Positions 2,549 to 26,071 of a DNA stretch of 32,000 nt are shown here, one piece after another. Source of the DNA: Dickeya dadantii NCPPB 898 (GTDB lineage Bacteria; Pseudomonadota; Gammaproteobacteria; Enterobacterales; Enterobacteriaceae); NCBI RefSeq assembly GCF_000406145.1, contig NZ_CM001976.1:4609545-4641544 (forward strand), written 5' to 3'. The notes under the pieces were generated by a model that was not told the DNA's origin, made no database searches, and was given only the letters and a program-made list of their open reading frames with translations. The position numbers were made by a program, and so were the translations under genes. How positions within the stretch are numbered: position 1 is the first letter of the stretch; each line of letters opens with the position of its first letter.

Positions 2549-2837
2549 ATAATTCTATTATCGTGCAGGCAATCTGGTCTGTATTGTCTCTCTTAGCACC
2601 GCCACATGTAGTCGTTTTTCATGGTGGCTTTGTTGATCCAGATTCTCCCCTACTGAAACAACAGGGGAAGATCAAAAAACGACCACACTCAGACGATACC
2701 TTAAATTATCGTGTACACATGGGTGTACCCGTAGAAAAAACGCATTAACAAGAATCCAGCAACCACGCGTTATAGAGCCACCTACTCAATAAACAGATTC
2801 AATCGAGTAATTTCCACCCTGTTCCACAGACTGCCAC

Positions 2838-2864
2838 AACGCCCTGCTTTCAGGGCGTTTTTGT
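2838..2864 (+). terminator. Rho-independent terminator
   Basis: Stem AACGCCCTG (2838-2846), loop CTTT, stem CAGGGCGTT (2851-2859), running into a TTTTTGTT tract. Confidence 0.55.
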
Positions 2865-2925
2865 TGCTTATTACGCTCCGTTTTCCGCCTGATCGCATCG
2901 GCACTAAACAGCAACTCCGACCATA

Positions 2926-2942
2926 ACTACGATAATCGTAGT
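2926..2942. promoter_or_regulatory. operator copy 1: ACTACGATAATCGTAGT (perfect 8-1-8 palindrome)
   Basis: One of four copies of ACTACG-N5-CGTAGT. It lies upstream of XRE paralog 1. Confidence 0.6.
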
Positions 2943-2959
2943 ATCTAAAACCCATCATG

Positions 2960-2976
2960 ACTACGAATATCGTAGC
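2960..2976. promoter_or_regulatory. operator copy 2: ACTACGAATATCGTAGC
   Basis: Same motif, 34 bp centre-to-centre from copy 1, immediately upstream of the likely ATG at 2978. Confidence 0.55.
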
Positions 2977-2977
2977 T

Positions 2978-3310
2978 ATGAACACCCGTCAGAAACGCCA
3001 TGATATTTTCAGTCAACGCCTCAAGGATGCTCGCTTACTGCGTGGGCTGTCCCAGAAAGGGCTGGGTATCGCTGCCGGAATAGATGAGTTTGTTGCCAGT
3101 GCACGCATTAATCGCTACGAAAAGGGTGTGCATGAAGCGAATATCGTGACGGCGAAGCGCCTCGCAGAAGCGCTCAATGTCCCTCTGGCTTATTTCTACG
3201 CTGACGATGACAATCTGGCAAAAATGATCCTACTGTTCGCCGACTTGCCCAGAGAACAGCAAGCCAGGTTGCTTGCATCGTTAGACAATAACCAACCCGA
3301 GACAAAGTAA
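2978..3310 (+). CDS. XRE-family HTH transcriptional regulator (paralog 1)
   Basis: HTH region LSQKGLGIAAGIDEFVASARINRYEKGVHEA. The start at 2978 (MNTRQKRHDIF..) is preferred over the ORF-track start 2957 because it aligns with paralog 2 (MKSRPNYHDVF..) and leaves operator copy 2 outside the coding region. Confidence 0.8.
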   Translation: MNTRQKRHDIFSQRLKDARLLRGLSQKGLGIAAGIDEFVASARINRYEKGVHEANIVTAKRLAEALNVPLAYFYADDDNLAKMILLFADLPREQQARLLASLDNNQPETK

Positions 3311-3317
3311 AACTCGC

Positions 3318-3575
3318 TTAACGCGACTTCGCTCTTATCCTGATTTTACGATCAATCAATTCACCACTCCGATCGTAATATCGACTCGGCCATATTTCGG
3401 CCGGATGAATCCCCAATGCTTCCGCAATCAGCCATTCACCTTTGGGCCAGGGCCTGACCAATGCATTCGCCAATGTTGATGCACTCAAACCGGCAGAACG
3501 GGAAAGCGCTGCCATTGAGGTACGTTGCTTGTGTAAAGCAGCAATAATGTCCGCCTGATGCCAATCCTTTTTCAT
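3318..3575 (-). CDS. Ner/Nlp (SfsB-like) family DNA-binding protein
   Basis: DWHQADIIAALHKQRTSMAALSRSAGLSASTLANALVRPWPKGEWLIAEALGIHPAEIWPSRYY closely matches the Mu Ner / E. coli Nlp family signature. Confidence 0.9.
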   Translation of the reverse strand: MKKDWHQADIIAALHKQRTSMAALSRSAGLSASTLANALVRPWPKGEWLIAEALGIHPAEIWPSRYYDRSGELIDRKIRIRAKSR

Positions 3576-3620
3576 CCAGCCTCCTAACTCGTCACTGTTA
3601 AAGGAACAGACACAGCAAAT

Positions 3621-3637
3621 ACTACGTTATTCGTAGT
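3621..3637. promoter_or_regulatory. operator copy 3: ACTACGTTATTCGTAGT
   Basis: Same motif, in the divergent intergenic region between the ner-like gene and XRE paralog 2. Confidence 0.6.
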
Positions 3638-3654
3638 ATCTCACTCAAGAAAAA

Positions 3655-3671
3655 ACTACGATTCTCGTAGT
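3655..3671. promoter_or_regulatory. operator copy 4: ACTACGATTCTCGTAGT
   Basis: Same motif, 34 bp centre-to-centre from copy 3, ending 2 nt before the ATG at 3673. Confidence 0.6.
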
Positions 3672-3672
3672 C

Positions 3673-3993
3673 ATGAAATCAAGACCAAACTACCATGACG
3701 TTTTCTGTCAACGACTTAAGCAAGCCCGGCTTGCGAAAGGCCTGTCACAGAAAAAACTCGGCATCGCCGCCGGAATCGATGAATTTGTGGCAAGCACCCG
3801 CATTAACCGATATGAAAAGGGCGTGCACGAAGCCAGTATTGATACTGCTCAACAACTCGCGAACGCGCTCGACGTCCCGCTGGCATTCTTTTACACCGCT
3901 GATGATGAACTGGCCGAATTGATGCTAGCGTTTTTGAGGCTGTCACCAGAGAAACGGGCAGAGATTTTGACATTAGTGAAAACGGTTGGGTAG
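3673..3993 (+). CDS. XRE-family HTH transcriptional regulator (paralog 2)
   Basis: The HTH (LSQKKLGIAAGIDEFVASTRINRYEKGVHEA) is near-identical to paralog 1. It is divergent from the ner-like gene. Confidence 0.85.
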   Translation: MKSRPNYHDVFCQRLKQARLAKGLSQKKLGIAAGIDEFVASTRINRYEKGVHEASIDTAQQLANALDVPLAFFYTADDELAELMLAFLRLSPEKRAEILTLVKTVG

Positions 3994-4181
3994 TAAATCA
4001 GTGCTCATTTTTTCTACACTGACAGAGATAGGATCACACTTATCACCAGCTATTCAGGAACCTCAGCCCGCGCGGCAATCATCTGGCATGATCCATAGAT
4101 AAGGGGTATGTTAGCCGCTTGCATTCAGGAAGAAACCGTTAGCGATCAGGCCGATCGCATTGGCGGTGCAAGGGAGAAAAA

Positions 4182-6482
4182 ATGGATACGTGTTATCCGA
4201 TACGAAAAGCGGATGGAAAGGATTACGACAGCCTGGAGACGTTACTGAACGTTTTGCGGCACGAACCCGATGGCTGGTGGCTGGCCAGCAGTAACCGACA
4301 GTGGCATGGCGGCATCCACATCAGCCGCCGGAGTGCCCCGGAATCAGTACTGACTTCAATCAACGCCGACAAGGCGGTTCCACTTCAGTGTATCGCCAGC
4401 GGAAACGTGGTGGCATGGCGCATCAATAAAAACTACTGCACCGCGCCGTATGACAAATATCAACTGCGCTATTCCAGCACATTTCTGCTGGTGCGTTCGG
4501 AACATAAGCCTAATCCGGACGACCAGAGCACGTGGTTGACGTTTTACACGCTGTATATGCACCTCGCTCCTGTTTCTGCCTACCCGGTGCTGATGAATTG
4601 TTATCGTGTCAAGCCCAATGTAAATAGCTTACCGACAAACGAATACAACGGCCGGGAAATCAGCGGGCAAAAATTGCCTAAAGCGGGAAATATCACACTC
4701 AAAGAAAATGATTTACTGGTGGTGTCAAAGCAGGAAACATTCAAAGTAGAACGTGAAACTAGTAATGATGTTTTCGGGCTGGCACAGCGCCTGAAAGACG
4801 GGAAAGTGAGCGAAGAAAAATTCTGGGTTTCTCTGCAAGATAAATTTGTCGAACAAACTGCCCCTCGCTATCACCGTATGCCGGAATGGATGACCAAAGC
4901 CGTTGAGCAGGGGAAATATGACACGGTGATCATCCCCGAAGAGACATTTGCGATCAACGCCGGAGACGCGATCGGCTTTTTAGCAGAAGATAACGCTCCC
5001 GACAAATCTGATTCCAATCGTGTGGAGGTAGACTTTTATTCGCACATTGAAGTCATCAGCGTTGATACCAATATGCCCGGTTTTCTCTCTAATCCCAAGG
5101 GGATTAAAACCGGTCGGGCTTTTGTGAAGATAAAAGAAGGAAAGCCGTTATATCAGAGATCCGGTGAAGGTGCCGAAACAACATTCACACCAACAAATGA
5201 TATGACCAAAGGCATGAATGCCGGAAGAATTCTACCTCGCGATAAGACCAACCAGATAGAAGCGCAGGGTACAACGTGGTTTCAAATCACAGCTGATAAC
5301 TGGATTAAATGCGAAGATGTGGACGAGTTAAGCCAACATGACTTATCTAAGCTGGGATTTACTGCGCTGGAAGAAGCATCGACGGACGATTTCGGTTCCC
5401 TGCTAAAAGAAAACTTTCTAAAAGGCATCTTTGACTGGGTATCACAATCCATTCGGGGAGATACCGAGTTTGAATGCCAACAGGGATCCGAGACGTATAA
5501 AAAGCTGGTGAAAGTCATCGACCAGAACAATGACGGTAATTTATCACAATACGAACTGGCTGCGTTTGAGAGACGTATCTTCGAAGGGCTGCATTCGGGA
5601 GAGAATAATGCACCTGAGCTGGTACGTCGGCTGATAGTCAAACATGATAGTGAATGGTTTGGCGACAGCAAGCATAAACACTGGCAGTCTTTTCTTAATA
5701 ACGATAGCTACCCGAAAATGATGCCGTATCTGAAAAAATGGCGAGATGATATGGCATGGATGAGTGAAGTACCTGAGTTTAAATCGGGTAAGCCTGTTTG
5801 GCATTTCCATCCGGTGGAGTTCATTGACATGTTAAACGATGATGACATGTCTCTGAAATGGCTAAAAGTTCCGAAAGGACAGTTAACATTTGATGTTGAG
5901 GGTAATGATGACGAAAAAAGCCCTTGGTTTAGCAGAATCGCTCATTGGCCAGGAAGCGCATCGGGTGTGACTATTGGTCGAGGATATGATTTAGGTCAAC
6001 AGATTACTGCTAATACCGATTTAACTCAGACAAGAATTGGTGAGCCTCTAAAGACATGGTTAATTGAATCTCAAGGATTGTCTTCGTCAAATGCGCAGAA
6101 TAGATTAATGTCAGCCAGCAGAAATATTCGTACATTTCAAATCACAAGAAAACAACAATATGAAATATTTATGATCTCATATCAACGATTGGAGAATGAT
6201 GTAAAGAAAATATGTCAGAAGGAAGAAGCCATTCGTAGATATCATCCAAACTCTAATGCCACACCAGAGCAAGCATGGAACGATATACCAGAAAAAATAA
6301 AAGAATTACTTGTAGATCTACGCTACCGTGGAGATTATACTCCCAGTACCCGCGTTCACTTACAGCATGCCGCATACTCTGGTGACATTAATACTTTTGG
6401 TCGAATTTTATCTAATAGAGCATATTGGCTAAACGTACCAGATGATAGATTCAAAAAGAGGGTAAAATATTATGAAAGTTAA
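4182..6482 (+). CDS. 766-aa putative antibacterial peptidoglycan-hydrolase toxin: split M23/LytM-like N-terminal domain, EF-hand loop, C-terminal pesticin/T4-lysozyme-like domain
   Basis: RBS AGGGAG upstream. M23-like strings are WHGGIHIS, ..FYTLYMHL.. and later INAGDAIGFLAED...DFYSHIEV. A canonical EF-hand loop DQNNDGNLSQYE sits at 5520-5555. The C-terminal LTFDVEGND...WPGSASGVTIGRGYDLGQQ ... LVDLRYRGDY resembles lysozyme-like toxin domains (catalytic Glu candidate at 5898-5900). Confidence 0.75.
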   Translation: MDTCYPIRKADGKDYDSLETLLNVLRHEPDGWWLASSNRQWHGGIHISRRSAPESVLTSINADKAVPLQCIASGNVVAWRINKNYCTAPYDKYQLRYSSTFLLVRSEHKPNPDDQSTWLTFYTLYMHLAPVSAYPVLMNCYRVKPNVNSLPTNEYNGREISGQKLPKAGNITLKENDLLVVSKQETFKVERETSNDVFGLAQRLKDGKVSEEKFWVSLQDKFVEQTAPRYHRMPEWMTKAVEQGKYDTVIIPEETFAINAGDAIGFLAEDNAPDKSDSNRVEVDFYSHIEVISVDTNMPGFLSNPKGIKTGRAFVKIKEGKPLYQRSGEGAETTFTPTNDMTKGMNAGRILPRDKTNQIEAQGTTWFQITADNWIKCEDVDELSQHDLSKLGFTALEEASTDDFGSLLKENFLKGIFDWVSQSIRGDTEFECQQGSETYKKLVKVIDQNNDGNLSQYELAAFERRIFEGLHSGENNAPELVRRLIVKHDSEWFGDSKHKHWQSFLNNDSYPKMMPYLKKWRDDMAWMSEVPEFKSGKPVWHFHPVEFIDMLNDDDMSLKWLKVPKGQLTFDVEGNDDEKSPWFSRIAHWPGSASGVTIGRGYDLGQQITANTDLTQTRIGEPLKTWLIESQGLSSSNAQNRLMSASRNIRTFQITRKQQYEIFMISYQRLENDVKKICQKEEAIRRYHPNSNATPEQAWNDIPEKIKELLVDLRYRGDYTPSTRVHLQHAAYSGDINTFGRILSNRAYWLNVPDDRFKKRVKYYES

Positions 6483-6828
6483 ACATTTAACATATTTCTT
6501 ATCAGTTATTTTCGCAACTCAGTGCTTTGCAGCCTTTTCTGAAAAGGAAAGCAATGAATTGGGAAGAATAAACACTGAATCCCAAAACGATAAAATAACC
6601 ACCATAAAAAACTTGGATCAGGCTATCAAAAAAGCCATTGAAGATAACCCAGAAAAGAAAAGATTAATTTTGGAGCTGAGAAAATCTTGGGATTTAACAA
6701 TAGAAAAAAAATGCCAGTTTGAAATTTCTGAATCTAAAGGAACAGATGCAGAAACCACTAAGATGAACAATTGCCTCGTCGAAAATTACCTGGATGAAAT
6801 AAAGTACTTTGACAGTATACTTCCCTAA
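6472..6828 (+). CDS. secreted DUF1311/LprI-like protein, candidate immunity (lysozyme-inhibitor type) for the upstream toxin
   Basis: Its start overlaps the toxin stop by 11 nt. Signal peptide MKVKHLTYFLSVIFATQCFA. The pattern W-x8-C ... G-x10-C-L-x3 (LRKSWDLTIEKKCQFEISESKGTDAETTKMNNCLVENYL) is typical of DUF1311. GC is about 30%. Confidence 0.65.
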   Translation: MKVKHLTYFLSVIFATQCFAAFSEKESNELGRINTESQNDKITTIKNLDQAIKKAIEDNPEKKRLILELRKSWDLTIEKKCQFEISESKGTDAETTKMNNCLVENYLDEIKYFDSILP

Positions 6829-6900
6829 TTTAAGATTAACAAAATAATAAAAATTAGTCAGCACCAGTATAAACGCATTTAAGTATTGAGGATACCAATC

Positions 6901-7830
6901 ATGAAAATAAAAGCAGCATGCTTATTATGCTTACTAATCAATAATGCAACAATAGCTGACGAATCGAACATTACTTACGGCTACGATAAAAATAAAGGAG
7001 AAATCTATGCAGTAAGTGGGAAGGAAAAAGGAGTTTTAAGTTTTGAAGAGAGTTATACCGGTAATCCTGCTGTTTCGTTTGGATTCTTTAATAATCAACC
7101 ATCAATTATTGTTTCAGCCCGTTCTTTGCATGACTATACCGCTTATATGACATTGCAATTTAAAAACGGTAATTTTTATGCAGACTGTCTATATGTCGAT
7201 ATAAAAAGCAAACAAAACGGTGTTGCTTCGAAAGAAGGCTTGTGCGGGTTAAACACACCGGTTTCAGATGATTATATTGAACTTGTTGAAAAACAAATTA
7301 ATGATGTATCAAATAATATTGACACGGTAGATACATCCTATTTTTTAAATGGAAAAACAACTTACATTCCATTAACTCTCTTTCGTGGGAAAGATAGTTT
7401 AATTTATAAAATATATAAAAATAAAAGTGCCATGCTAAACGATGAATACCAAATATTATTCACTGATAAACATGGGCAATGCCAGTCATACAATAAAAAT
7501 ACGTGGCTAGAATATAACTCAAAAGCTGCGGACAATGCCCATATCAAAGCAGAAAAAAATAAGGATGATCAAATATCATTGATACCTATCGTGGTAGAAG
7601 ATGAAAAAAAATCTAATGATTGTGAAAAATACCCAACATTTAAGGTAAAATCAGATAAATCTTTTTTCTATGATGAAAACAAAAACCCCAAAAACTCTTA
7701 CCTAATAAAAGGGGATGATATTACCTTACTGTCAATTAAGGATGATGATAAATGGTGTCGAGTCAGGTATGTTTCAGAAAAGAACAAAAATACAGATGGT
7801 AATATGCTCTGTTCAACATTGAAACTATAG
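6901..7830 (+). CDS. secreted protein of unknown function (possible second immunity or accessory protein), with an SH3-like C-terminus
   Basis: ATG at 6901 with GAGGA RBS (6888-6892) is preferred over TTG at 6886. Signal peptide MKIKAACLLCLLINNATIA. Very AT-rich. The C-terminal ..LIKGDDITLLSIKDDDKWCRVRYV.. looks SH3b-like. Confidence 0.6.
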   Translation: MKIKAACLLCLLINNATIADESNITYGYDKNKGEIYAVSGKEKGVLSFEESYTGNPAVSFGFFNNQPSIIVSARSLHDYTAYMTLQFKNGNFYADCLYVDIKSKQNGVASKEGLCGLNTPVSDDYIELVEKQINDVSNNIDTVDTSYFLNGKTTYIPLTLFRGKDSLIYKIYKNKSAMLNDEYQILFTDKHGQCQSYNKNTWLEYNSKAADNAHIKAEKNKDDQISLIPIVVEDEKKSNDCEKYPTFKVKSDKSFFYDENKNPKNSYLIKGDDITLLSIKDDDKWCRVRYVSEKNKNTDGNMLCSTLKL

Positions 7831-8034: not shown

Positions 8035-8451
8035 TTACCGGCTCCACCGGGGAGGAGCGATATTCTCCACGATATCTGAAAAAGAGATCAAAGGATCACG
8101 CCTTTTTACCGCCGCCTCTACACAGTGTTGCACCGGAGATTTATAAGGTGTATCGCCGATAATCACGTTGCTGCTACCGGAAACAATGAGGCCGCCGCAA
8201 TCAATGTCGTCACCTATTCGCGCGGCAGATTTCCCATTAATCGATACCGTAGAAGATCCTGATGCTATTTTTCTGCCATGCACACCATGAGGCCCCTGAG
8301 GGCAGGGACATCCGTGCATTTTTACCGTATCACCAACGCGTGCGGCCGGGAGACCGTTAATCAATACGTCAGCGCTGCCTTCTGTTACCGGAGTATCGGG
8401 AAAGCAATCATGTCCACTTCCGATGTCATTTAAGCGAGCCGCTCCTGGCAT
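8035..8451 (-). CDS. PAAR-domain protein (T6SS spike tip) with a roughly 40-aa C-terminal extension
   Basis: PAAR repeats LPAARVGD and KSAARIGD, plus the typical N-terminus ARLNDIGSGHDC and Cys/His cluster HGCPCPQGPHG. Confidence 0.85.
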   Translation of the reverse strand: MPGAARLNDIGSGHDCFPDTPVTEGSADVLINGLPAARVGDTVKMHGCPCPQGPHGVHGRKIASGSSTVSINGKSAARIGDDIDCGGLIVSGSSNVIIGDTPYKSPVQHCVEAAVKRRDPLISFSDIVENIAPPRWSR

Positions 8452-9797: not shown

Positions 9798-12485
9798 TCA
9801 GGGATGACTCCACATTGATGGGTAGCTTTCACCATTGCCGTTCACGGCAACAACCCGGTAGTAGTAGCCGCCAGCCGGTACTTTTGAACTGTCGCTGTAG
9901 GCGTTAGCGCTAACGGTGGCGATCGTCCGGTAATCACCGTTTTCACCGGTGGCACGTAATATTTTGTAGCGCTCGGCGCCGGATGCCGCCGTCCAGGATA
10001 GCCCGGTGACGCCGTTGCTGCTGTGCGCTTTCAGGTACAGCGGCGTGCCGGGCACCGGTTTGGCATCACGGGTGCCATCCAGATAGAGCACCACGCTGGC
10101 ACGCGGCCCCACGGTCACATCGCCCGATTGCGTTCGCTGCGAAACCAGATCTTCCGCCGCGTTGAAACCGACCGGTGTTTTCAGCACGTAGCTATTGCTG
10201 GCGTTGGCGTTAATCCCCATCAGATAGTGGCCGAAACGCAAAGCGTAAAAATCGGCCTTACCGCGGAACGGATCGTCGCTGGACGCATCGGTCGGCGTCG
10301 ACCCCAGCGGCAGCAGCTCGCCGGCATAGGCGTTATCCGGCGGATTAGGCGGCGTGTAAGGGGTTTTCTCCGGCATATCGATGATGTTGGGGCGCGCATA
10401 CACCGAGGTCGCTCGGAAGATTGGCGTGGTTTCCAGTACGCCGTATTGGTCATAGCCGGACGTACTAAAGTGGAAGCGCGCCAGACCGTTGATGCCCGTC
10501 CCCGCTTTCGCCTCCCAGTAAGCGCTCAGCCACAGGCGTTCATCTCCTTTTTTGATCGCGGCGATAGCGTTCTCTTCATCCACCCAGGCAAAGTCAGGCT
10601 GCCCGTCCGTCATCGGCAGACGCACACCGCTGTCGCTCGCCGCTTTGATCGTCTGATAATCGGCGAATACGTCCAGCGCTTCAAACGCGGACTCCGACCC
10701 GGCCAGATTGGCGAAAAACTGATTATCGTCCAGCATTTGTCTGGCGTAACCCATGAGCGTCGCATCTTTGCTGGCGGCGGCGACACGCAACGCCTTAGCG
10801 CGTTCGTTGGTATTCACCGCGTCGGCATAAGCGATGTAACCGGCGAAATTGCCGTCGCTTTCATGCGCGCCGCGCCAGGCCAGCAGGCCAATCGCTTCCA
10901 TCGAACGGTAGGTGGCGCCATTACTGATTTCAATCGCCGGACGGCGGAACGGCGCGCGCGCTTTGGTCATTTTCACCATCTGCGTGCGGAAATCCTCATT
11001 ACCGGTGACACGATAATATTCCGCCAGATACGACTGCACTTCCCCATACCCCGCGCCGACATAGCCCCACTCGCGGGTCTGGCCTTTGTCGGTGACCTGA
11101 TAGTAGTTGCTGCCAAACGGTTTCCAACCGCCATCATCCGGCAGGCCATTGCCATTACTGTCCGCCTTATCATCACCGCTCCACGGTAAAAGCCCGACAG
11201 CTTCCTTGATATAGCGCTGCGCGGTTTCCTCCGGAAAAGCGCGCGAATCTTTCAGTACCAGCATGCCTTTGTTGGCGAAGTAGATGTTGGTATTGGCTAT
11301 CAGGTTCTGGTTGCTCAACCTCAGGCGATTTTGCAACCGGCCGTATTCACGGCTGGCAAACAGCATGTCGGCCCAGGCGATACGGCGTTTTTTAGTACCG
11401 GCGGCACCATAGCTGACTGAGGCATTGAGGATATCGGCAGTCAGCATCTCGCGCAGGTAATAGATCGCCTGCCCCTGCGAGCCAAAATTTCCCCCCCAAT
11501 TTTTCACGGTGTTGTTGTCGGCATAGTATTGCGCGGCGTAAGCATCCAGTGTGGCGACGACCTGGCTCACCACCGCCGGATTTTGGTAGCTTTTCAGTTC
11601 CGGAATGGCGTACGCATGAGCGAGATACCGCAAATCTCCGCCGGAAAGATTCGCGGTTGTCGGCTCCTTGCCAAGCAGGCTGGTGATACGGTTATTGATG
11701 GCAACGCGGAACGAACCGTTCGCGCCCAGCATCTCATCGCCCGGGGAAGGACGGGTGCTGACCGCCGGCGCACTGCCCTGCCTTTCGCCCGAAACATCAA
11801 GGAATGGCTCAACATGGGTGTAAGCCCGGTAAATCCCGCGGCTCGGCACGTTCATCGCGTACTGATACGGATTGCTGGCATCCGGGCCGCCGTTGCCGAA
11901 CGGATAGAGACGGCCGGTGGACACAATTTTCAGGGTAACGCTACTGCTGCCTTTGGTCATCGCGTAAGGCAGCAAGGTGGTTGAGTAGAAGAAGCGCCCT
12001 GGCAACGGCTTATTCCAGTGGGTGACGCTGAGCGGCGCATAGTCGCCTTCGTGACGGTAGCCGACCTGATAATCAACGCCATCCCTGACGATATACAAGT
12101 AAAGGCGACCAGTATCGTAGTTACCGTCATCTTCACCCCACAGCTTGACGGAAACGTAGTTACGGCGCAGCGGATCCACCCGCAGGGTAACCGTCAGGCT
12201 GCCGCCATACACGCCTGCCGGGCTGAGCGGCAGTAATTTACGGGCGGATTCGCCCAGCCCACCGGAGAGCGTCTGGCTATTATTTTCGATCAGACTATGG
12301 CTTTTCTCCGACGCGCTGTCGCCAAACGAAACCTGATCAATCGTCCCAACCGCCGTAGCCGCGGCTGATGACGACGTGGCTCCTGAACCCGAACTCTCGG
12401 CGGCAATGGCCGCATGATTTGCCGTTGTAGCCGCCAGCGCCAGCGCAACCAGCCACGCCGGTCTGAACACCGTGTTTTTCTGCAT
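9798..12485 (-). CDS. 895-aa secreted protein with a C-terminal fibronectin-type-III-like domain; possibly a polysaccharide-active enzyme (function uncertain)
   Basis: Signal peptide MQKNTVFRPAWLVALALAATTANHAAIA. The C-terminal LSWTAASGAERYKILRATGENGDYRTIATVSANAYSDSSKVPAGGYYYRVVAVNGNGES is FN3-like. No catalytic family was recognised by eye. Confidence 0.8.
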   Translation of the reverse strand: MQKNTVFRPAWLVALALAATTANHAAIAAESSGSGATSSSAAATAVGTIDQVSFGDSASEKSHSLIENNSQTLSGGLGESARKLLPLSPAGVYGGSLTVTLRVDPLRRNYVSVKLWGEDDGNYDTGRLYLYIVRDGVDYQVGYRHEGDYAPLSVTHWNKPLPGRFFYSTTLLPYAMTKGSSSVTLKIVSTGRLYPFGNGGPDASNPYQYAMNVPSRGIYRAYTHVEPFLDVSGERQGSAPAVSTRPSPGDEMLGANGSFRVAINNRITSLLGKEPTTANLSGGDLRYLAHAYAIPELKSYQNPAVVSQVVATLDAYAAQYYADNNTVKNWGGNFGSQGQAIYYLREMLTADILNASVSYGAAGTKKRRIAWADMLFASREYGRLQNRLRLSNQNLIANTNIYFANKGMLVLKDSRAFPEETAQRYIKEAVGLLPWSGDDKADSNGNGLPDDGGWKPFGSNYYQVTDKGQTREWGYVGAGYGEVQSYLAEYYRVTGNEDFRTQMVKMTKARAPFRRPAIEISNGATYRSMEAIGLLAWRGAHESDGNFAGYIAYADAVNTNERAKALRVAAASKDATLMGYARQMLDDNQFFANLAGSESAFEALDVFADYQTIKAASDSGVRLPMTDGQPDFAWVDEENAIAAIKKGDERLWLSAYWEAKAGTGINGLARFHFSTSGYDQYGVLETTPIFRATSVYARPNIIDMPEKTPYTPPNPPDNAYAGELLPLGSTPTDASSDDPFRGKADFYALRFGHYLMGINANASNSYVLKTPVGFNAAEDLVSQRTQSGDVTVGPRASVVLYLDGTRDAKPVPGTPLYLKAHSSNGVTGLSWTAASGAERYKILRATGENGDYRTIATVSANAYSDSSKVPAGGYYYRVVAVNGNGESYPSMWSHP

Positions 12486-13052
12486 AGGTCAGTCCCTTTT
12501 TCCAGTTTTTTATCATCCGTGCAGTCCTATCAGATGACAATGACAAAACGAATACATCATTACCACACTAATACTTCCATCAATTAACCATAGTTTCTCG
12601 ACGCTATTGATACTTTTTTAGTATCACCTTCCCACGCGTCGTCTACATACCCTAAGCCGACGTCGTCAGGTGGAAACAGCATGTAGAAAAGTCGGGATTA
12701 CAACACATCGCGCTCCTCTGTCGGATCGGCGTCAGTATTTATGGCAACAACCCTGTCCGCCAATTAATCATACCGGCGCTTTATGCCCGAAAAACACCGA
12801 CCAGACGGCGCGTGACCGTTAATCACATCAGACCTCCTGATGGGTTTTATCACGACAACAGAGGGGATTGCTCTGCTGGCAGCGGCCATAATGAGGATAG
12901 AAAAGGAAATAATATGTCAACTAATGAAAATAAACTTTCCTTAAATGAATGCAAATAATCACGCTGGAAAAGCAAGCGGTAAAAACGTTAACATATATCC
13001 CCACCAGGTGAGTTTTGCGTAAAAAGACATAAAAGTGATGACAGGGGGAAAT

Positions 13053-13691
13053 ATGTTAGAAATATTTGATGTGAGTTTTAGCTTAATGTCAAATAACAAG
13101 CTAGATGAGGTGTTTGCACTACGCAAAGGGACATTTAAGGACCGTCTGGACTGGACCGTCAACTGTATTAACGGGATGGAATTTGACGAGTACGATAATG
13201 AACATACCACCTACTTGTTAGGTGTCAAGGAAGGAAAAATCATTTGTAGTGTCAGATTTATAGAAATGAAATATCCCAACATGATTACTGGCACATTTTT
13301 CTCTTATTTCGACGGCCTCAACATTCCCGAAGGGAATTATATTGAATCCAGCCGATTTTTCGTCGACCGCGATCGGGTGAGAAATTTGATTGGCACCCGT
13401 AATCCAGCTTGCCTGACATTATTTCTTGCCATGATCAATTACGCCAGAAAATATCATTATGATGGGATATTCACGATTGTCAGCCACCCGATGCTGACCT
13501 TGTTAAAACGTTCAGGCTGGCGCATTTCCATCATTCAGCAGGGGTTATCAGAAAAACAGGAGAAAATTTATCTGCTGCATCTGCCCACTGACGATGAAAG
13601 CCGATACGCGCTGATCGAGCGCATTACACGGATAACCAACGCCGAATCCGAGCAGCTTACGACCTTGCCTTTGCTGGTCCCACTGGCTTGA
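13053..13691 (+). CDS. expI: acyl-homoserine-lactone synthase (LuxI family)
   Basis: MLEIFDV.. start with GGGGGA RBS. LuxI hallmarks are LRKGTFKDRLDWTV, EFDEYDN, ESSRFFVD and TIVSHPMLTLLKRSGW. It is convergent with a LuxR-type gene, as in soft-rot Pectobacteriaceae. Confidence 0.9.
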   Translation: MLEIFDVSFSLMSNNKLDEVFALRKGTFKDRLDWTVNCINGMEFDEYDNEHTTYLLGVKEGKIICSVRFIEMKYPNMITGTFFSYFDGLNIPEGNYIESSRFFVDRDRVRNLIGTRNPACLTLFLAMINYARKYHYDGIFTIVSHPMLTLLKRSGWRISIIQQGLSEKQEKIYLLHLPTDDESRYALIERITRITNAESEQLTTLPLLVPLA

Positions 13692-14409
13692 TCAGGTTCA
13701 TTTCAACGCCGAGCCGGATAGCATGCTTGGCATTCAGCACGCCCAGTTTTTTCACAACGTTGCCGATATGAAATTTTACTGTACTGGTGGTGATACCGAG
13801 AATAAGCGCAATCTCCTGATAGGTTTTTCCCATACTCGCCCAGTAGAGAATTTCGTTTTCTCTTTGTGAGAAAAGATCGGCTTCCTGCGACTTGCTGTTG
13901 TTTCTGTTTCTGCTCATCTCTCGGTACAGAGAGGTGAGTTTTTCATGCGCTGAAATCAACAGCATTTGCAATTTATCTTTATTATTCTGAATAATTTCTT
14001 CCAGTTCTTCGCTGCGGTGCTCTTCAATCATAAAAGACAAGGCGGCCAGGTTGTTACCCGGATCGTGCAATACAAAGGTATAACCATTAACAATGTCGTA
14101 ATCTTTGGAGAGATTGAATATTCTGGAAAACTTCAATTTTGAACTGATGACCAGATCATCATCCCAGGAGAAAGGGGAAATTTTGTTGATAGCGGTCAGA
14201 ATTACCGGGTCAATATGCTGATAGTTATTATTTCTGTAAATATCAACCCACTCCGTCGGATAGTTGGAGATGATCACAACGTCCGTCGGTTTCTTCTTGT
14301 TCATGATCAAATAGGCGTACTTGGGGTCGCCATAGCTTTTTAACTTTCTGTTAAGATAGCTTTGTATTGTGCTATTGATGAAGTCAACGTTAGAGAATGA
14401 TATAGACAT
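13657..14409 (-). CDS. expR: LuxR-family AHL-responsive transcriptional regulator
   Basis: Start MSISFSNVDF.. at 14409 with GGGAGAG RBS (the ORF-track start 14544 is rejected). It has an autoinducer-binding N-terminal region and a C-terminal HTH ENEILYWASMGKTYQEIALILGITTSTVKFHIGNVVKKLGV. Confidence 0.9.
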   Translation of the reverse strand: MSISFSNVDFINSTIQSYLNRKLKSYGDPKYAYLIMNKKKPTDVVIISNYPTEWVDIYRNNNYQHIDPVILTAINKISPFSWDDDLVISSKLKFSRIFNLSKDYDIVNGYTFVLHDPGNNLAALSFMIEEHRSEELEEIIQNNKDKLQMLLISAHEKLTSLYREMSRNRNNSKSQEADLFSQRENEILYWASMGKTYQEIALILGITTSTVKFHIGNVVKKLGVLNAKHAIRLGVEMNLIKPVGPAKARS

Positions 14410-14797
14410 CCAACTCTCCCAAAATCGCGTGCGACAGCCCAGCCTGACCATAACGGCACGAAAGTATAGTATCAACCTATACCTAAGTCTAACTATCTTT
14501 CCCGATACAAAATCCTTAGAATTTTCAAAAAATAACATCAACACAAAAATAAAAACATCTGATCCGCTTTAAAGATCGGAAAGCCAAATTGGCGCACACC
14601 AGGGAAATATCCGTTAGTTTATTATTTCTATGCCTTAAATAATTCGGGTAGCAGGACAAGGCTCATTATGAGCCAGGTAACGCGGCCCCCCAGTGAATCA
14701 CCGAAAGCTGGCATAAGTCAGCGACGGGGATGAATGCAGGCGGCCAACCTATCTGTCATCCTAAGTATGGCGGGCAATAACGCTGTATTGTTAGCCC

Positions 14798-15154: not shown

Positions 15155-15466
15155 ATGGATTATTCGGTAATTATTCATCATGATGATGACACCTTGCATA
15201 CCCTCCTGCGCGACAAACTCAGCGCGATTGGCGTCGATAACGGCCGTATCGCCGAGATCTTTCAGGGAGCCCCCTTGTTCGGTGAAGAGGGGCGGCTGGA
15301 CTCCATCAATATCGTCACCCTGATCGCCATGCTCAGCGACCACTGCGAAGCGGCCTATAACCTGAGCGGCGATTTGTTCGACCTGACGGACGACCGCGTT
15401 TTTGATGCGTTCCAGAATCTGACCAGTCTGACGCGCTTCCTGCGCGAGCGGCTTCGCCATGGCTGA
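15155..15466 (+). CDS. free-standing acyl/peptidyl carrier protein (first gene of the Vfm-type operon)
   Basis: ATG at 15155 with AAGGGGAG RBS (the ORF-track start 15083 is rejected). The canonical phosphopantetheine site is in GRLDSINIVTLIAML. Confidence 0.75.
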   Translation: MDYSVIIHHDDDTLHTLLRDKLSAIGVDNGRIAEIFQGAPLFGEEGRLDSINIVTLIAMLSDHCEAAYNLSGDLFDLTDDRVFDAFQNLTSLTRFLRERLRHG

Positions 15467-16781
15467 CCCCACCCCTCCCGTTGCTGCTGAGGCGGGTTCG
15501 CTGTTCGCCAACGGCTATGTAGAAGAGATTCCTGTTGCCAATATTGCCGACCGCATCGGCACGCCTTTCTATGTTTACAGCGCCCGTCAGCTACGCCGCC
15601 AGCTTCAGCAGCTCCGCCAGCAACTGCCAACCGGAACCGCAATTTATTATTCTTTGAAAGCCAATCCTAATCTTTCGGTGGTTAGAGCGTTGGCGGAACA
15701 GGGGGCGGGGTGTGAGGTCTGCTCGCCAGCCGAGCTGAAAACCGCGTTGGCGGCAGGCGTCTCACCGCAGCACATCCTGTATGTCGGGCCGGGCAAATCT
15801 CTGCCGGCGCTGAAACTCGCCATTGACTGCGGCATCCAGGCAATTGTGGTGGAGTCGGTAACAGAGCTGGATAACCTCAACCGGCTGGCCGCACGGGCCA
15901 ATACCGTGCAGACGGTGGCGCTGCGCATCAATCCGGATTTCAGCAGCGCGCACGCCCGGCTGGTGATGAGCGGCAAACCTACCCAGTTCGGCATGACGCG
16001 GGATACCCTGCATACCGTGCTGGTCAGCCTGCACCGCTGGCCTTCCATTTCCCTGCGCGGTTTTCATGTTTATCTGGGTACCCGAATCCTCAATGCGCAG
16101 GCCATCGCCGACAACACCCGTAATATTCTGCAACTGGCGCTGGATCTCCGCAACACGCACCGGTTAACGCTGGATTTCGTCGATGTCGGCGGCGGTTTCG
16201 GCGTACCCTATTTTCCGAAGGAAACGCCGTTGGATCTGCCGGCGTTAGGCGCGGCCATCGCGTCGATCGTGGCGGATTTCCGCCGCCGGGCCGCCGACAC
16301 GCAAATCATCATCGAACTGGGACGTTATCTGGTGGCGGAAGCCGGCCTGTTCGTCACCCGGGTCAACACCCTGAAAACCGCCGGCGGGAAAACGTTCGCC
16401 GTCTGTGACGGCGGCGCCAATTGCCACAGTGCGGCGGCCGGCCTGAACAGCATGCTGCGCAAAAACTTTCCGTTGTTGCGGCTGGGCGACAACCAGGGGC
16501 GGCCGTTGCAGCCTTATCAGGTCAGCGGACCGCTTTGCACGCCCACCGATCTGCTGGGCGACAATGTGCTGCTACCAACGCTGGAGGTCGACGACCTGAT
16601 CGGCATCACCCACTCCGGCGCTTACGGGCTAACCGCGTCGCCGGGTTCGTTCCTCAGTTTCGGTTACCCGGTGGAAGTGATGGTGGACGGTCGACGCCTC
16701 ACGCTGATACGCCAGCCGGAAACCACGGAACAACTGCTGGCCCGGCAACAGCCGGTCGACCTCTGCGGGGATACGCCATGA
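15459..16781 (+). CDS. PLP-dependent decarboxylase, Orn/DAP/Arg decarboxylase (alanine-racemase fold) family; tentatively vfmK by position
   Basis: PLP lysine in YYSLKANPN. Other family motifs are VDVGGGFGVPY, SGPLCTPTD and HSGAYG. Its start overlaps the carrier-protein stop (ATGGCTGA). Confidence 0.85.
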   Translation: MADPTPPVAAEAGSLFANGYVEEIPVANIADRIGTPFYVYSARQLRRQLQQLRQQLPTGTAIYYSLKANPNLSVVRALAEQGAGCEVCSPAELKTALAAGVSPQHILYVGPGKSLPALKLAIDCGIQAIVVESVTELDNLNRLAARANTVQTVALRINPDFSSAHARLVMSGKPTQFGMTRDTLHTVLVSLHRWPSISLRGFHVYLGTRILNAQAIADNTRNILQLALDLRNTHRLTLDFVDVGGGFGVPYFPKETPLDLPALGAAIASIVADFRRRAADTQIIIELGRYLVAEAGLFVTRVNTLKTAGGKTFAVCDGGANCHSAAAGLNSMLRKNFPLLRLGDNQGRPLQPYQVSGPLCTPTDLLGDNVLLPTLEVDDLIGITHSGAYGLTASPGSFLSFGYPVEVMVDGRRLTLIRQPETTEQLLARQQPVDLCGDTP

Positions 16782-17689
16782 CGTTGTGTATCCAGCCGGA
16801 TGACCTGGTATGGCGCGCTTTTGCGCCCGAAAGCGAGGCCGCGTTGCTGGCCCCACATCCCAGTCAGGCTTTGATGGCGGATTACCTGCGCGCTTTTTTC
16901 CGTTCTCACGACGACCCCCAGGAACCGGACGACGCCCTGCTGACCCGCTGGCTCAACAGCGGCCGCCATACGTTTACCGCGATGATGCAGGCGCTGCTGC
17001 CCGAATTGCAGGCGCGTCATACGCTGCAGCAGCTTGATCTGGTGATGTTCGCTCATTGGACGCCCGACAGCACCCTCGGTTGCGCGGTATCCAACGCGCT
17101 GATCCATGCCTGCGACGCCCGACAGGCGTTCGGGCTGTCGGTGTCGGAGCGCGGGCTGGCGGCGCCGCTGTTTGCGCTGCACGCCATCGACGACTATCTG
17201 GCCAGCGATGAAAACCGGCGCGAGGCGTTGCTGATGATTGCCGATCAGGACGTGGCGCCTTACCCCAGCGAACGGCTGGCGCAGTTGCGTCCCCAAAAGA
17301 ACTGTTGCCTGATGCGGATAGAAAAACGCCCGCCCCAGCAGGCCAGCGGGCTGATATTTGAAGGGTATTATCGCCAACCTTACGCCGAAAGCGGCGACCC
17401 GATCGGAGCCATGCGGCAATTGCTCTCGCGCCTGCCCGCGGCGGACACGCTGACGCTGCTGAGCACCCCGTCGCTGGCGGCGGAACTACAGGGCGCGTTC
17501 CCCGAACACCAGACTGCGGCCGTGGCGGAGTCGTTACTGTGCGCCGCCCCGTTCGTATACCTGAAACACCATGCGCAGCCGGGCCGGCGTTATCTGCTGA
17601 CGGTGCCGGAATCGCGTCACCTTACCGCCTGTGTGTTGCGCTACCAGCCTTGCCACGACGGGCCTTTCACTTGCCCTCCCCGTACCTGA
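16778..17689 (+). CDS. FabH-fold (thiolase-like) protein lacking the catalytic Cys; paralog of 27192-28049
   Basis: ATGA overlap with the decarboxylase stop; the ORF-track 5' extension (16421-16777) overlaps that gene and is rejected. The strings ..MFAHWTPDSTLG..GLSVSERGLAAPLFALHAID..LLMIADQD.. align by eye to the FabH active-site region, but no Cys is present. Confidence 0.7.
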   Translation: MTLCIQPDDLVWRAFAPESEAALLAPHPSQALMADYLRAFFRSHDDPQEPDDALLTRWLNSGRHTFTAMMQALLPELQARHTLQQLDLVMFAHWTPDSTLGCAVSNALIHACDARQAFGLSVSERGLAAPLFALHAIDDYLASDENRREALLMIADQDVAPYPSERLAQLRPQKNCCLMRIEKRPPQQASGLIFEGYYRQPYAESGDPIGAMRQLLSRLPAADTLTLLSTPSLAAELQGAFPEHQTAAVAESLLCAAPFVYLKHHAQPGRRYLLTVPESRHLTACVLRYQPCHDGPFTCPPRT

Positions 17690-17701
17690 GAAGGATGCTC
17701 C

Positions 17702-19285
17702 ATGACGAACATTACCCACCTGACCGCCTGGCTTGACCGAGCAGCCAAAGAAGCCGCCAACAAAACCGCGATCATCGACACCGACCGCGAGGTCAGCTGG
17801 TTTATGCTGCGTCTGCAGGCCCGGCAACTGGCGGACTACCTGCGAGAAAACGGGGTGGAAAAAGGCGACCGGGTGATCGTCTGTATGCCGAACTCACTGA
17901 CGTTCGTGCTCTATTTCTGGGCGTTGCAGTATCTGGGGGCGATCTTTATTCCACTGAGCCCGGACACCAAAGCCAGCAAGCTGAGCTGGCTGGTGGACAA
18001 CGCCGGCTGCCGGTTACTGATTGCCAATCGCATCCTGAAAGACGAAATCGGCATCGCTCAGGCAAGCGAGCACTGGCAGCAATACAATCGTCATACCCGC
18101 GTCTGTTTCAGCAATGATGTGGCGGCCGTGCTGGCGGGAGAACCGTATCGCATCTCCGTCGAGCGCGACCGGCAGGCAACGGGCATCGACCTCGATCTGG
18201 CCTGCATTATCTACACCTCCGGCTCGACCGGCCATCCCAAAGGGGTGATGCTTAGCCGACGCAATATGATTACCGCCGCTGGCTCGGTGGCCGGTTACCT
18301 GCAACTGCGCGGCGACGACCGCATCATGTCGATGATCCCGATGAGCTTCGATTACGGCCTGTATCAGGTGATCATGTCGGCGCTGGCGCAGTGTACGCTG
18401 ATCGTAGAGCCGGATTTCCGGCGTCCGCTGCTGTCGTTGCAGCGCATGGTCACCCTGCGCGCCACCGTATTGCCGATCGTGCCGACCATGCTGCGCCTGA
18501 TCGCGCCGCTGGCGTCCCGCTATAACTTCGGCACCATCCGTACCGTGACCAACACCGCCGCCGCGCTGCATGCCGGCGATATCGATCAGTTGCGTACCAT
18601 CTTTCCGCAGGCGCGCATCTACTCGATGTACGGGCTGACCGAGTGCCACCGCTGCACTTACCTGCCGCCGGAATACCTCGCCACCCACCCGCAGAGCGTC
18701 GGCATCGCCATTCCCAACACCGAACTGTGGGTGGTGGACGACAACGGCCAGCGCCATACCCGCAACGCCACCGGCGAACTGGTGATCCGCGGCGCGACCG
18801 TCATGTGCGGCTACTGGCGCAATGAAGAGAAGAGCGCCGAAAAGCTGCGCCCCGGTCTGCTGCCGGGCGAACGGGTGCTGTACACCGGCGACATCTGCCG
18901 GTTGGATGAACAAGGATTGCTCTATTTCGTCGGCCGCCGGGACGAAATGCTGAAAAACTGCGGCGAAAAAGTGGCGCCGAAAGAGGTGGAAGCGGTGCTC
19001 AACCGCCATCCGCAGGTCGCGCAGGCGGTGGTGCTCGGCGTGCCGCACCCGATTTACGGCGACGAAATCATCGCCTGCGTGGTTACCCGCGGCGATCTCA
19101 ACGAAAAGGCGCTGTCGCGCTGGAGCAAAACCCAGATGGAGTCGCACATGGTGCCGCACCGCTTCCGGCTCATATCGCAGCTGCCGCTGAACCATAACGG
19201 CAAGATCAACCGCTCGCTGTTGCGAGAACAACTGACGGCGGGCGCAACGGCTCAGGTTTGCCCGCAGCACGGTCTAATGGAGTAA
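17702..19285 (+). CDS. AMP-dependent synthetase/ligase (acyl- or aminoacyl-adenylating enzyme); tentatively vfmM
   Basis: Core motifs are IIYTSGSTGHPKGVMLS, YGLTE, YTGDICRLDEQGLLYFVGRRDEMLKNCGEKVAPKEVE and NHNGKINR. RBS GAAGGA. Confidence 0.85.
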   Translation: MTNITHLTAWLDRAAKEAANKTAIIDTDREVSWFMLRLQARQLADYLRENGVEKGDRVIVCMPNSLTFVLYFWALQYLGAIFIPLSPDTKASKLSWLVDNAGCRLLIANRILKDEIGIAQASEHWQQYNRHTRVCFSNDVAAVLAGEPYRISVERDRQATGIDLDLACIIYTSGSTGHPKGVMLSRRNMITAAGSVAGYLQLRGDDRIMSMIPMSFDYGLYQVIMSALAQCTLIVEPDFRRPLLSLQRMVTLRATVLPIVPTMLRLIAPLASRYNFGTIRTVTNTAAALHAGDIDQLRTIFPQARIYSMYGLTECHRCTYLPPEYLATHPQSVGIAIPNTELWVVDDNGQRHTRNATGELVIRGATVMCGYWRNEEKSAEKLRPGLLPGERVLYTGDICRLDEQGLLYFVGRRDEMLKNCGEKVAPKEVEAVLNRHPQVAQAVVLGVPHPIYGDEIIACVVTRGDLNEKALSRWSKTQMESHMVPHRFRLISQLPLNHNGKINRSLLREQLTAGATAQVCPQHGLME

Positions 19286-19290
19286 CGTCG

Positions 19291-19599
19291 ATGTCATTCA
19301 ATACCGATTACGCGTCCAACGCCGGCTATCGCCCGGATTTTTACTACCAGAAGATCGCCACGGCGATCGGCATGGTGCTGGAAACCGACGACCTGTCGGA
19401 ACTGCACCCGCATACCGATCTGGAGCGGGATTTAGGGTTCAAGAGCGGCATTTTCATCGAGCTGATGATGTATCTGGAAGAGATGATCGAAGGGTTTTCC
19501 ATCAACCCGGTGACGCTGGACAGCCAGCAGATCAGCACCATCGACTCGCTCGGCCGTTTCATTCACTCACAGTTGGAGCATGACGTCCCTTGTGCATGA
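19291..19599 (+). CDS. second free-standing carrier-protein-like protein with a non-canonical Ser motif
   Basis: ATG at 19291 with a GGAG RBS 8 nt upstream. LERDLGFKSGIFIELMMYLEE resembles DLGxDSLxxxEL, but reads K-S-G where D-S-L is expected. Confidence 0.6.
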   Translation: MSFNTDYASNAGYRPDFYYQKIATAIGMVLETDDLSELHPHTDLERDLGFKSGIFIELMMYLEEMIEGFSINPVTLDSQQISTIDSLGRFIHSQLEHDVPCA

Positions 19600-22644: not shown

Positions 22645-22741
22645 CACTTCCCCAAAATAGCGGTACGACCTGCAAGCAGGCATAAAAAAAAACCGCTGTC
22701 GCCGGTAGTCTGGTACAAACGGTATTGACGGGGGAAAAGTC

Positions 22742-24303: not shown

Positions 24304-24304
24304 C

Positions 24305-24817: not shown

Positions 24818-24852
24818 CCCCGTCGCACCGCTACCATGAAGCAGCACAGGCT

Positions 24853-24989
24853 CTTGATGACGCTCCAGCTATTGATGACGCTCCAGCTATTGATGACGCT
24901 CCAGCTATTGATGAAACGCTCCATACTATTTATGGAACACTCCATACTCTTTATGAAACACCCATGCTATTTATGAAACACCCCATACC
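24853..24989. repeat. seven tandem direct repeats of 18-21 bp in the intergenic gap inside the operon
   Basis: (C/A)TTGATGACGCTCCAGCT occurs three times (24853-24906). These are followed by ATTGATGAAACGCTCCATACT, ATTTATGGAACACTCCATACT, CTTTATGAAACACCCATGCT and ATTTATGAAACACCCCATACC. Confidence 0.9.
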
Positions 24990-25047
24990 ATGACGCCGGA
25001 CACGCCGTTCGCCCTTTTTCATCCCGTTAACCGTCAGGAGTGCGCTT

Positions 25048-25971: not shown

Positions 25972-26071
25972 CCAAAACGCAATATCGGGCAATACACCAC
26001 AACTATTCCCGATAAGGTACATAATTATCGTGCGAATGGTATTTTTTGCGACTCGACTAACAGGACAGATC

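Follow-up and report, generated by a model that had tools for sequence, protein, structure and literature searches.

In a 32,000-nucleotide stretch of the genome of Dickeya dadantii NCPPB 898 (RefSeq assembly GCF_000406145.1, contig NZ_CM001976.1, positions 4,609,545 to 4,641,544 of the forward strand), hereafter called the window, four copies of a short palindrome are found among three small regulatory genes, which we refer to as XRE1, ner and XRE2, just upstream of a toxin gene. Our interpretation, to which we give a probability of roughly 75% on the basis of sequence comparison, is that the palindromes are operators of XRE1 and XRE2 and that these two homologues of the controller protein C.Csp231I form, together with the Ner-like gene, a self-regulating cassette that is not tied to the toxin. 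The three genes make up a discrete unit of about 1.1 kb, which is met again at the margins of variable islands with defence genes, toxins or integrative elements. A preliminary description of this DNA had taken the module for a switch reminiscent of phage Mu and organised upstream of the toxin, and had considered it either a controller of toxin expression or a prophage relic. The C.Csp231I class of regulators is already known; what is new here is the altered specificity, the duplication and the pairing with Ner.

Two pairs of palindromes beside two start codons

The palindromes, none of which is assigned a strand, are arranged in two pairs. The first precedes XRE1 and consists of a distal site at 2926-2942 (ACTACGATAATCGTAGT, core CTACG-N5-CGTAG), which has orthologous sites in Pectobacterium, Brenneria and Dickeya loci, and a proximal site at 2960-2976 (ACTACGAATATCGTAGC). 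The second precedes XRE2, with a distal site at 3621-3637 (ACTACGTTATTCGTAGT), part of an extended palindrome ATACTACG-N5-CGTAGTAT whose offset is the same in nearly all of 80 related loci, and a proximal site at 3655-3671 (ACTACGATTCTCGTAGT). A pattern scan of the window confirmed the four positions given in the preliminary description and the presence of two copies before each of two paralogous XRE genes, with a start-to-start spacing of exactly 34 bp in both pairs. The 17-mer claimed there, ACTACG-N5-CGTAGT, is exact in three of the four sites but not at 2960, which ends in C and is thus mismatched at the outermost base, whereas all four carry the 15-bp core CTACG-N5-CGTAG without a mismatch. 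At no more than one mismatch the 17-mer has four matches in the window against 0.05 expected, and none of 100 shuffles reaches four; these statistics rule out chance as the source of the sites. The only near-match to the core in the rest of the window has one mismatch and lies in a coding region at 18393.

Both proximal sites end one base ahead of an ATG (2978 for XRE1 and 3673 for XRE2), so that they span −18 to −2 as counted from the start codon. The divergent region between ner and XRE2 (3576-3672) and the gap between XRE2 and the toxin gene (3994-4181) have the reported lengths of 97 and 188 bp, and a scan of the gap for the operator found none. Terminal repeats of a mobile element were sought around 2780-4200, where only the operators and short chance repeats were found.

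Assignment of XRE1 and XRE2 to a class of controller proteins

XRE1 (2978-3310, plus strand, 110 residues) and XRE2 (3673-3993, plus strand, 106 residues) are helix-turn-helix (HTH) regulators with matches to Pfam HTH_3 and to the Control_protein model of PADLOC (E = 9e-26 and 5e-23, respectively). They are 66% identical, and their HTH segments, earlier called nearly identical, indeed differ at only 2 of about 31 residues. The open reading frame (ORF) list starts XRE1 at an upstream in-frame ATG at 2957; we place the start at 2978 because of the homology with XRE2 and all orthologues and because this ATG comes directly after the operator. The top database matches of the two proteins are Dickeya proteins of 97-99% identity, and an exact-protein lookup of XRE2 found no record. 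Orthologues of XRE1 are 76-94% identical, with ratios of nonsynonymous to synonymous substitution rates (dN/dS) of 0.05-0.07.

The preliminary description had likened the arrangement to the repressor/Ner switch of phage Mu, but XRE1 and XRE2 are not repressors of the Mu or CI type: by profile, PADLOC match and predicted fold, both are placed in the C.Csp231I/C.EcoO109I class of restriction-modification controller proteins. When the PDB was searched with the family profile, C.Csp231I of Citrobacter sp. RFL231 came first (E = 1e-31, residues 2-97 of 98) and BswR of P. aeruginosa (4o8b) second, with C.AhdI and C.BclI far weaker. The AlphaFold model of XRE2 (mean predicted local distance difference test score, pLDDT, 93.8) has seven helices, including two extra C-terminal ones, and was aligned by Foldseek to C.Csp231I (3lfp) with template modeling (TM) scores of 0.82/0.90 and a root-mean-square deviation of 1.2 Å. 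The XRE proteins have 43-46% identity to C.Csp231I and C.EcoO109I, the same seven-helix fold with its two-helix C-terminal extension, two 5-N5-5 palindromes upstream of their own genes at 33-34 bp centre to centre, and a start codon close to the operators. Membership of the class explains the form of the palindrome, the distance of about 34 bp between the two sites and their place beside the start codon. Differences from C.Csp231I are found in the activation patch, which is SQK here instead of SQE, in the duplication of the gene and its pairing with a Ner-like gene, and in the window's having no restriction endonuclease or methyltransferase gene.

Covariation of a recognition-helix residue with the half-site

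C.Csp231I binds CTAAG-N5-CTTAG at two sites 18 bp apart, that is 33 bp centre to centre, and contacts the bases through Ser32, Gln37 and His43; it is the length of the spacer, and not its sequence, that is required for the binding of two dimers (PMC4321490). In the family studied here the equivalents of Ser32 and His43 are retained, but the position of Gln37 is Arg, in an invariant RINRYE. Seven of the nine positions that make phosphate contacts are also retained, the other two being Ser30 and Lys42, each replaced by Val. The half-site is CTACG and not the CTAAG of the C.Csp231I/C.EcoO109I class ('motif 8' of Sorokin et al. 2009), a difference of a single base.

The relation between residue and half-site was followed in plasmid homologues collected with tblastn, independently of the peptide patterns behind our main locus set. 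Homologues with Gln at the Gln37 position, from Xanthomonas, the transposon of A. salmonicida S44 described below and Vibrio, have CTAAG-N5-CTTAG. Those with Arg, from two further independent lineages (Moraxella osloensis and Mycetohabitans rhizoxinica), have CTACG-N5-CGTAG, and those with His, from five IncH/IncF-type plasmids, have CTTAG-N5-CTAAG. Wherever two sites exist, the spacing is 34 bp. It is mainly from this covariation and from the relative's crystal structure that we infer the XRE proteins to be what binds the palindromes.

The His-type sister group, on IncH/IncF-type plasmids of Raoultella, Klebsiella and Lelliottia, also has two operator copies at this spacing, with the order of the half-sites reversed. 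Each of its regulator genes diverges from a gene for a conserved protein of about 185 residues, and one of the loci (L102) is followed by a phospholipase gene of a cyclic-oligonucleotide-based antiphage signaling system (CBASS).

Related regulators outside restriction-modification

Proteins of the C.Csp231I class have been found before in other settings. One is the Xre of the I-F3b CRISPR-associated transposons (CAST), for example that of Aeromonas salmonicida S44, which is 47.7% identical to XRE2 and has two sites 34 bp apart upstream of its gene; the distal site was found experimentally to activate and the proximal one to repress (bioRxiv 10.1101/2020.07.02.184150). It differs from the proteins studied here in its Gln-type helix and CTAAG sites, a third site at tniQ-cas, an ATG about 44 nt beyond the point where the proximal site starts, and in having neither a Ner partner nor a paralogue. 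The second-closest solved structure, BswR (PA2780; profile E = 7.5e-29, TM 0.83/0.87, 45% identity), also carries SQK, is encoded on the chromosome unlinked to restriction-modification genes, and has a small overlapping ORF, PA2781, behind it. However, its reported footprint at rsmZ (ACCCGGCGTTCGCCGGGT) is unrelated to CTACG, its helix is of the Gln type (ARMNQYE), and the role ascribed to it is the modulation of motility and biofilm instead of autoregulation through an operator pair.

A further parallel is offered by the tandem genes Bxe226/Bxe227. Sorokin et al. (2009; PMC2632904) listed controller-protein homologues without restriction genes, among them tandem 'motif 8' pairs such as this one, and asked whether such genes control other toxic genes. 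Like XRE1 and XRE2, Bxe226 and Bxe227 are adjacent paralogues of the class with the same predicted motif class; they were listed and not analysed, and neither a Ner partner nor a CTACG specificity was described for them.

Several other candidates were considered and set aside. A defence regulator of the CapH/CapP type, in which an HTH repressor is paired with a CapP metallopeptidase beside CBASS, gave a weak PADLOC match (capH, 1.5e-6, against 5e-23 for Control_protein), and the window has no peptidase or CBASS gene. RptR binds direct repeats of TAGCTA and is unrelated (PMC12255303). XreR1 and XreR2 of Photorhabdus have 78 and 69 residues, so that neither is a C-class protein of about 106 residues and the cassette is not the same; XreR2 has been described as highly homologous to Ner of phage Mu (PMC7905540). 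In the literature we found no description of a Ner/XRE cassette, of a link between Ner and dnd genes or of the Mu Ner operator.

Distribution and conservation of the cassette

In a scan of one genome per species, 154 relatives were found and 80 loci retained. The operator pair accompanies the XRE family in about 80 species of the Gamma- and Betaproteobacteria, Lysobacterales included, and two sites are present upstream of the XRE gene in almost all 80 loci. The spacing is exactly 34 bp in 107 of the 122 site pairs of the related loci. Among 97 unique pairs, the ATG follows two bases past the 15-bp proximal core in 70, and the sequence logo has a near-invariant A7 and T11 in the proximal site. 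A Ner gene is adjacent in 43 of the 80 loci, and the other 37 retain the sites without it. The order XRE1–Ner–XRE2 is common to Pectobacterium, Brenneria and Rahnella, while Cedecea, Buttiauxella and Citrobacter have Ner followed by two tandem XRE genes, each with its own pair of sites. Where dS is unsaturated, dN/dS is 0.05-0.15 for XRE1, XRE2 and ner (0.07-0.14 for ner), and by this measure each of the three is subject to purifying selection. Megablast against E. coli genomes gave no match, and in a distant DNA search of plasmids only the ner segment was matched.

The neighbours of the cassette are diverse. Downstream of XRE, in 75 loci, they include chemoreceptors, YhgA-like nucleases, HipA, P4-type primase, Tlde1 and Fic; on the Ner or upstream side, dndB lies directly behind ner in six loci, and integrases (four), C5 methylases (three) and yicC (three) are also found. 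In one related locus a McrB-like gene adjoins the cassette. This survey indicates that the cassette stands at the borders between variable islands and their surroundings, and that in some loci it is the first part of a DNA-modification operon; the DNA-modification neighbours echo its controller-protein ancestry.

Between Ner and XRE, nine loci (L031, L033, L034, L036, L037, L043, L044, L049 and L050) have four sites in a single divergent region of about 220 bp. The two sites on the ner side are spaced 35 bp, and TTTTGCGA comes after them. Where a locus has a tandem second XRE gene, TTATGCGA stands at this position and is the start of that gene. The ner-side pair thus resembles what would remain of the promoter of a middle paralogue that was deleted.

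Promoters and proposed regulation

Because XRE1 and XRE2 have a common recognition helix, each should bind all four sites, and as dimers acting on shared sites they would regulate themselves as well as each other. The predicted ner promoter (3619-3648, minus strand), as read from the sequence, consists of a −35 element TTGAGT (3648-3643), an 18-nt spacer and a −10 element TAGTAT (3624-3619). Its −10 and the distal XRE2 operator overlap at the left edge of the latter, and the XRE proteins should therefore repress ner. When ner positions were defined by tblastn and compared across loci, the TTG (CAA on the plus strand) and the AT of the left flank were found together in 35 pairs and both lacking in 38, with one or the other present singly in 7 and 12. 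Neither element is present at pairs of the XRE1 type, which have no gene diverging from them.

For the xre genes, one candidate −10, which we call (a), is GAnTaT in the spacer of the proximal site (GAATAT at 2965-2970 for XRE1, GATTCT at 3660-3665 for XRE2), and the A and T at the would-be −11 and −7 positions are near-invariant. With this element the A of the AUG would be the first transcribed base and the mRNA leaderless, and the distal and proximal sites would be centred at about −44 and −10. No Shine-Dalgarno sequence precedes the xre genes, and their mRNAs are probably leaderless or at least devoid of one. The transcript of C.Csp231I is leaderless, and its gene is activated from the distal and repressed from the proximal site (PMC4824078). 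In the cassette the operators lie about 27 bp nearer the ATG than those of C.Csp231I and of the CAST Xre; the proximal site would consequently cover the −10 and start region and not the −35, which makes the regulatory geometry a variant.

The proposal that the palindromes serve as operators before the two XRE genes, already made in the preliminary description, is supported by the class match, the covariation and the conservation. Several points weigh against our interpretation. Retrieval of the loci relied on the peptide patterns AGIDEFVA and RINRYEKG, so that the recognition helix is constant by construction and the conservation of the operator in the 80-locus set is partly expected; independent support for pairing the operator with the XRE proteins comes from the smaller plasmid sample. 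A generic scan of 2700-4300 called no sigma-70 promoter, leaving the ner and xre candidates all uncalled, so that the promoters proposed here derive from conservation and their placement is ambiguous. A second candidate −10 for the xre genes, (b), has the near-invariant sequence TAGTAT and sits on the distal site's right edge; with it both sites would be purely repressive, and the mRNA would have a 27-nt leader without a Shine-Dalgarno sequence. The replacement of SQE by SQK makes activation at the distal site uncertain. Finally, there may be read-through from XRE2 into the toxin gene, which is taken up below. With either −10, occupied operators would interfere with initiation.

Relation of the cassette to the toxin locus

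The toxin gene (4182-6482, plus strand) lies outside the cassette and encodes a polymorphic peptidoglycan-hydrolase effector of the type VI secretion system (T6SS) type, with 766 residues and 100% identity to a D. dadantii protein. Its Pfam result is a sub-threshold match to pesticin/lysozyme alone. The family has a conserved N-terminal domain of about 540 residues, present in more than 1000 proteins, and interchangeable C-termini of the GH19, GH73, GH104, GH108 and pesticin-type lysozyme kinds. The locus also takes in 6472-6828 and 6886-7830, and a PAAR gene is convergent at 8035-8451.

The arrangement proposed earlier, a switch organised upstream of the toxin, did not hold up in comparison with other genomes. 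In D. fangzhongdai, yicC and its terminator are followed by the toxin; the cassette is absent, although the 130-bp region upstream of the toxin (4052-4181 of the window) is kept at 87%. The terminator in question is a terminator-like hairpin with a T-run at 2838-2859 (plus strand), which in the window closes the upstream yicC unit on its 3' side and sets the left limit of the stretch available to the XRE1 promoter; it follows yicC in D. solani as well. D. oryzae has the cassette at another locus, and the homology runs from 2923, three bases ahead of the first operator, to 3984, ending at the XRE2 stop codon. In Pectobacterium, Yersinia and Serratia a toxin homologue follows hcp-vgrG(-PAAR) without XRE or Ner. 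Given these loci and the operator-free gap, the toxin is not a conserved target of the cassette.

The most serious alternative to our interpretation is that the cassette is nevertheless a working gate for the toxin. Transcription from the XRE2 promoter would read through the 188-bp gap and the effector would follow the state of the XRE/Ner switch, for example with a burst or a delay after horizontal acquisition, in the manner of a C protein with its co-transcribed endonuclease. Since no operator precedes the toxin gene, only read-through could provide the coupling, and it is possible in that XRE2 and the toxin gene are co-directional and the gap (plus strand) has no terminator-like hairpin and no significant RNA structure. 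The arrangement is retained in D. solani, with 95% identity from 2794 to 5821, after which the toxin C-terminus diverges and identity returns at 6498, and C genes of this class are known to share a bicistronic mRNA with the downstream gene (PMC4824078). The cassette or its Ner–XRE half also stands beside other toxic cargo, namely the orphan CdiA-CT modules of D. oryzae, the Tlde1, HipA and Fic neighbours, and dndB in the six loci mentioned. On the other hand, 4052-4181, the larger part of the gap, is the toxin's own conserved upstream region, which D. fangzhongdai keeps without the cassette; homologues in other genera do without XRE and Ner; and many of the heterogeneous genes behind XRE in the 75 loci are ordinary core genes such as chemoreceptors. 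We therefore consider toxin gating unlikely.

In D. oryzae (L085) a further Ner–XRE copy occupies 12762-13441. It is flanked by a full-length cdiA on one side and by an orphan PT-VENN cdiA-CT module on the other, and its ner points into the orphan toxin. There a cassette promoter might drive an otherwise silent orphan toxin/immunity pair of the contact-dependent growth inhibition (CDI) type.

The Ner-like gene, Mu-like phages and other readings of the palindromes

The gene that shares the divergent region with XRE2 is, as had been described, of the Ner/Nlp (SfsB) family. It occupies 3318-3575 on the minus strand, has a ribosome-binding site AGGAGG at 3580-3585 (minus strand) and encodes 85 residues matching PF13693 with E = 5e-37; the match to NCBIfam SfsB (4e-33) is under that model's cutoff. 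The 3' part of ner contains, at 3342-3382, the inverted repeat GATTTTACGATC / GATCGTAATATC, whose arms are 17 nt apart; the TACGAT/ATCGTA in these arms resembles the operator half-sites, at a different spacing.

An echo of the repressor/Ner switch of phage Mu had been noted in this arrangement, and part of it stands. The protein shares 62-67% identity with the Ner proteins of Mu-like phages of Shewanella and Vibrio, and in those phages too ner diverges from the gene of an HTH repressor over a short region (97 bp in the window); the predicted ner promoter is overlapped by a repressor site, as in the Mu-type switch. The part that failed is the repressor itself, which in the phages belongs to another family. 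Their repressor, annotated as Cro/CI family, has 244 residues against the 106-110 of the C-class proteins here, where a Mu-type switch would have Mu c or a CI-like protein of about 240, and their ner is followed directly by a DDE transposase; in the Mu-type switch ner heads the early operon. Here no transposase or early operon follows ner, whose next minus-strand neighbour is the convergent XRE1 gene; phage genes are likewise absent near the cassette, whose neighbours are an IS3 element, AbiD and the T6SS-type effector. Motifs associated with Ner in the regions of Mu-like phages (TTAACTAAGTTAGTTA) are absent here.

A further shared feature lies in the 5' region of ner, which at 3595-3609 reads CTGTT-AAAGG-AACAG. 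Several copies of its AAGGAACA part, in both orientations, are found in the control regions between repressor and ner of the Mu-like Shewanella and Vibrio phages (L104, 736-908; L105, 1443-1616). The motif may be a site for Ner or may reflect common ancestry, and it is only weakly conserved across the cassette loci.

The related Ner proteins, the divergent layout and the common AAGGAACA motif would fit a decayed immunity region of a Mu-like transposable prophage, in which a repressor gene divergent from ner was left behind when the remaining phage was lost. The size and family of the XRE partner, the missing transposase, a search of 50,697 phage records that gave no XRE2 homologue at 1e-8, and the retention of the cassette as a unit across genera all speak against such a relic. 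The three genes are intact, and with dN/dS of 0.05-0.15 none of them behaves as a relic. The prophage origin suggested in the preliminary description is thus most improbable.

The idea that the palindromes are operators of Ner, or RNA hairpins acting as terminators or translational structures, can draw on a scan that flagged the proximal XRE2 palindrome with its minus-strand T-run as terminator-like, on 5-6-bp hairpins beside the AUG (z-scores −2.5 and −3.0) and on the CTAAG contained in the site of Mu Ner, but it has very little chance of being correct, since the site pairs upstream of XRE remain in the 37 loci without Ner, the half-site changes together with a single residue in the recognition helix of XRE, the control regions of the Mu-like phages have no CTACG site (best core match three mismatches) although their Ner HTH is nearly the same, the stem bases are invariant instead of co-varying, variation of the outer bases breaks the pairing, and no Rfam family scored above threshold.

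The terminator-like feature consists of the XRE2 proximal operator followed by TTTTTTC on the minus strand (3654-3672), and an A-tract ahead of the proximal site is kept in many loci. It could stop antisense transcripts before they reach the ner promoter, or it could merely bend the DNA.

Surroundings of the cassette in the window

To the left of the cassette are an IS3-family element (ORFs 166-417 and 441-1277) and an AbiD/Abi_2 abortive-infection gene (1598-2548). In the region 1-2793 they take the place that yicC has in D. solani and D. fangzhongdai; homology to these species resumes at 2794, with the last bases of yicC and the terminator, which suggests that an island was inserted into yicC or replaced it. 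To the right of the toxin locus, an 895-residue ORF without a Pfam match lies at 9798-12485 on the minus strand, and D. fangzhongdai (L097) has an 895-residue product at the corresponding position beside PAAR, DUF7661 and YdgH genes. An autoinducer synthase and a LuxR gene resembling expI/expR follow at 13035-14544, and 15459-31987 holds a cluster of AMP-ligase and acyl-CoA-dehydrogenase genes with a histidine kinase. We take this pair and the cluster to be the vfm quorum-sensing cluster of Dickeya, in keeping with the origin of the window.

Implications

When a toxic gene is acquired by horizontal transfer, controller proteins are the textbook means of delaying it, and to our knowledge they have been studied almost exclusively in restriction-modification systems. 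The present comparison points to a C-class family that is often duplicated, usually paired with Ner and located at the borders of defence and toxin islands, and that occurs without restriction genes in at least 80 proteobacterial species. Within the controller-protein class its specificity appears to have changed by one residue (Gln to Arg) and one base (CTAAG to CTACG), and the Gln, Arg and His types suggest a simple recognition code that is open to mutagenesis. The cassette is a candidate regulator for dnd operons and for orphan toxin modules. It also gives reason for caution in annotation, in that a regulator cassette beside a toxin gene need not control that gene.

A broader view, which we put forward quite tentatively and with the odds well against it, is that the cassette is a portable two-layer switch. 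XRE would repress ner, Ner would feed back on XRE, and mobile islands would use the device to gate or time self-harming cargo after transfer, such as the phosphorothioation genes behind ner, orphan CDI toxins and, via read-through, T6SS effectors. If this were true, the delay principle of controller proteins would extend to polymorphic toxin systems, and expression of the T6SS-type effector of this D. dadantii strain would be heterogeneous or bistable.

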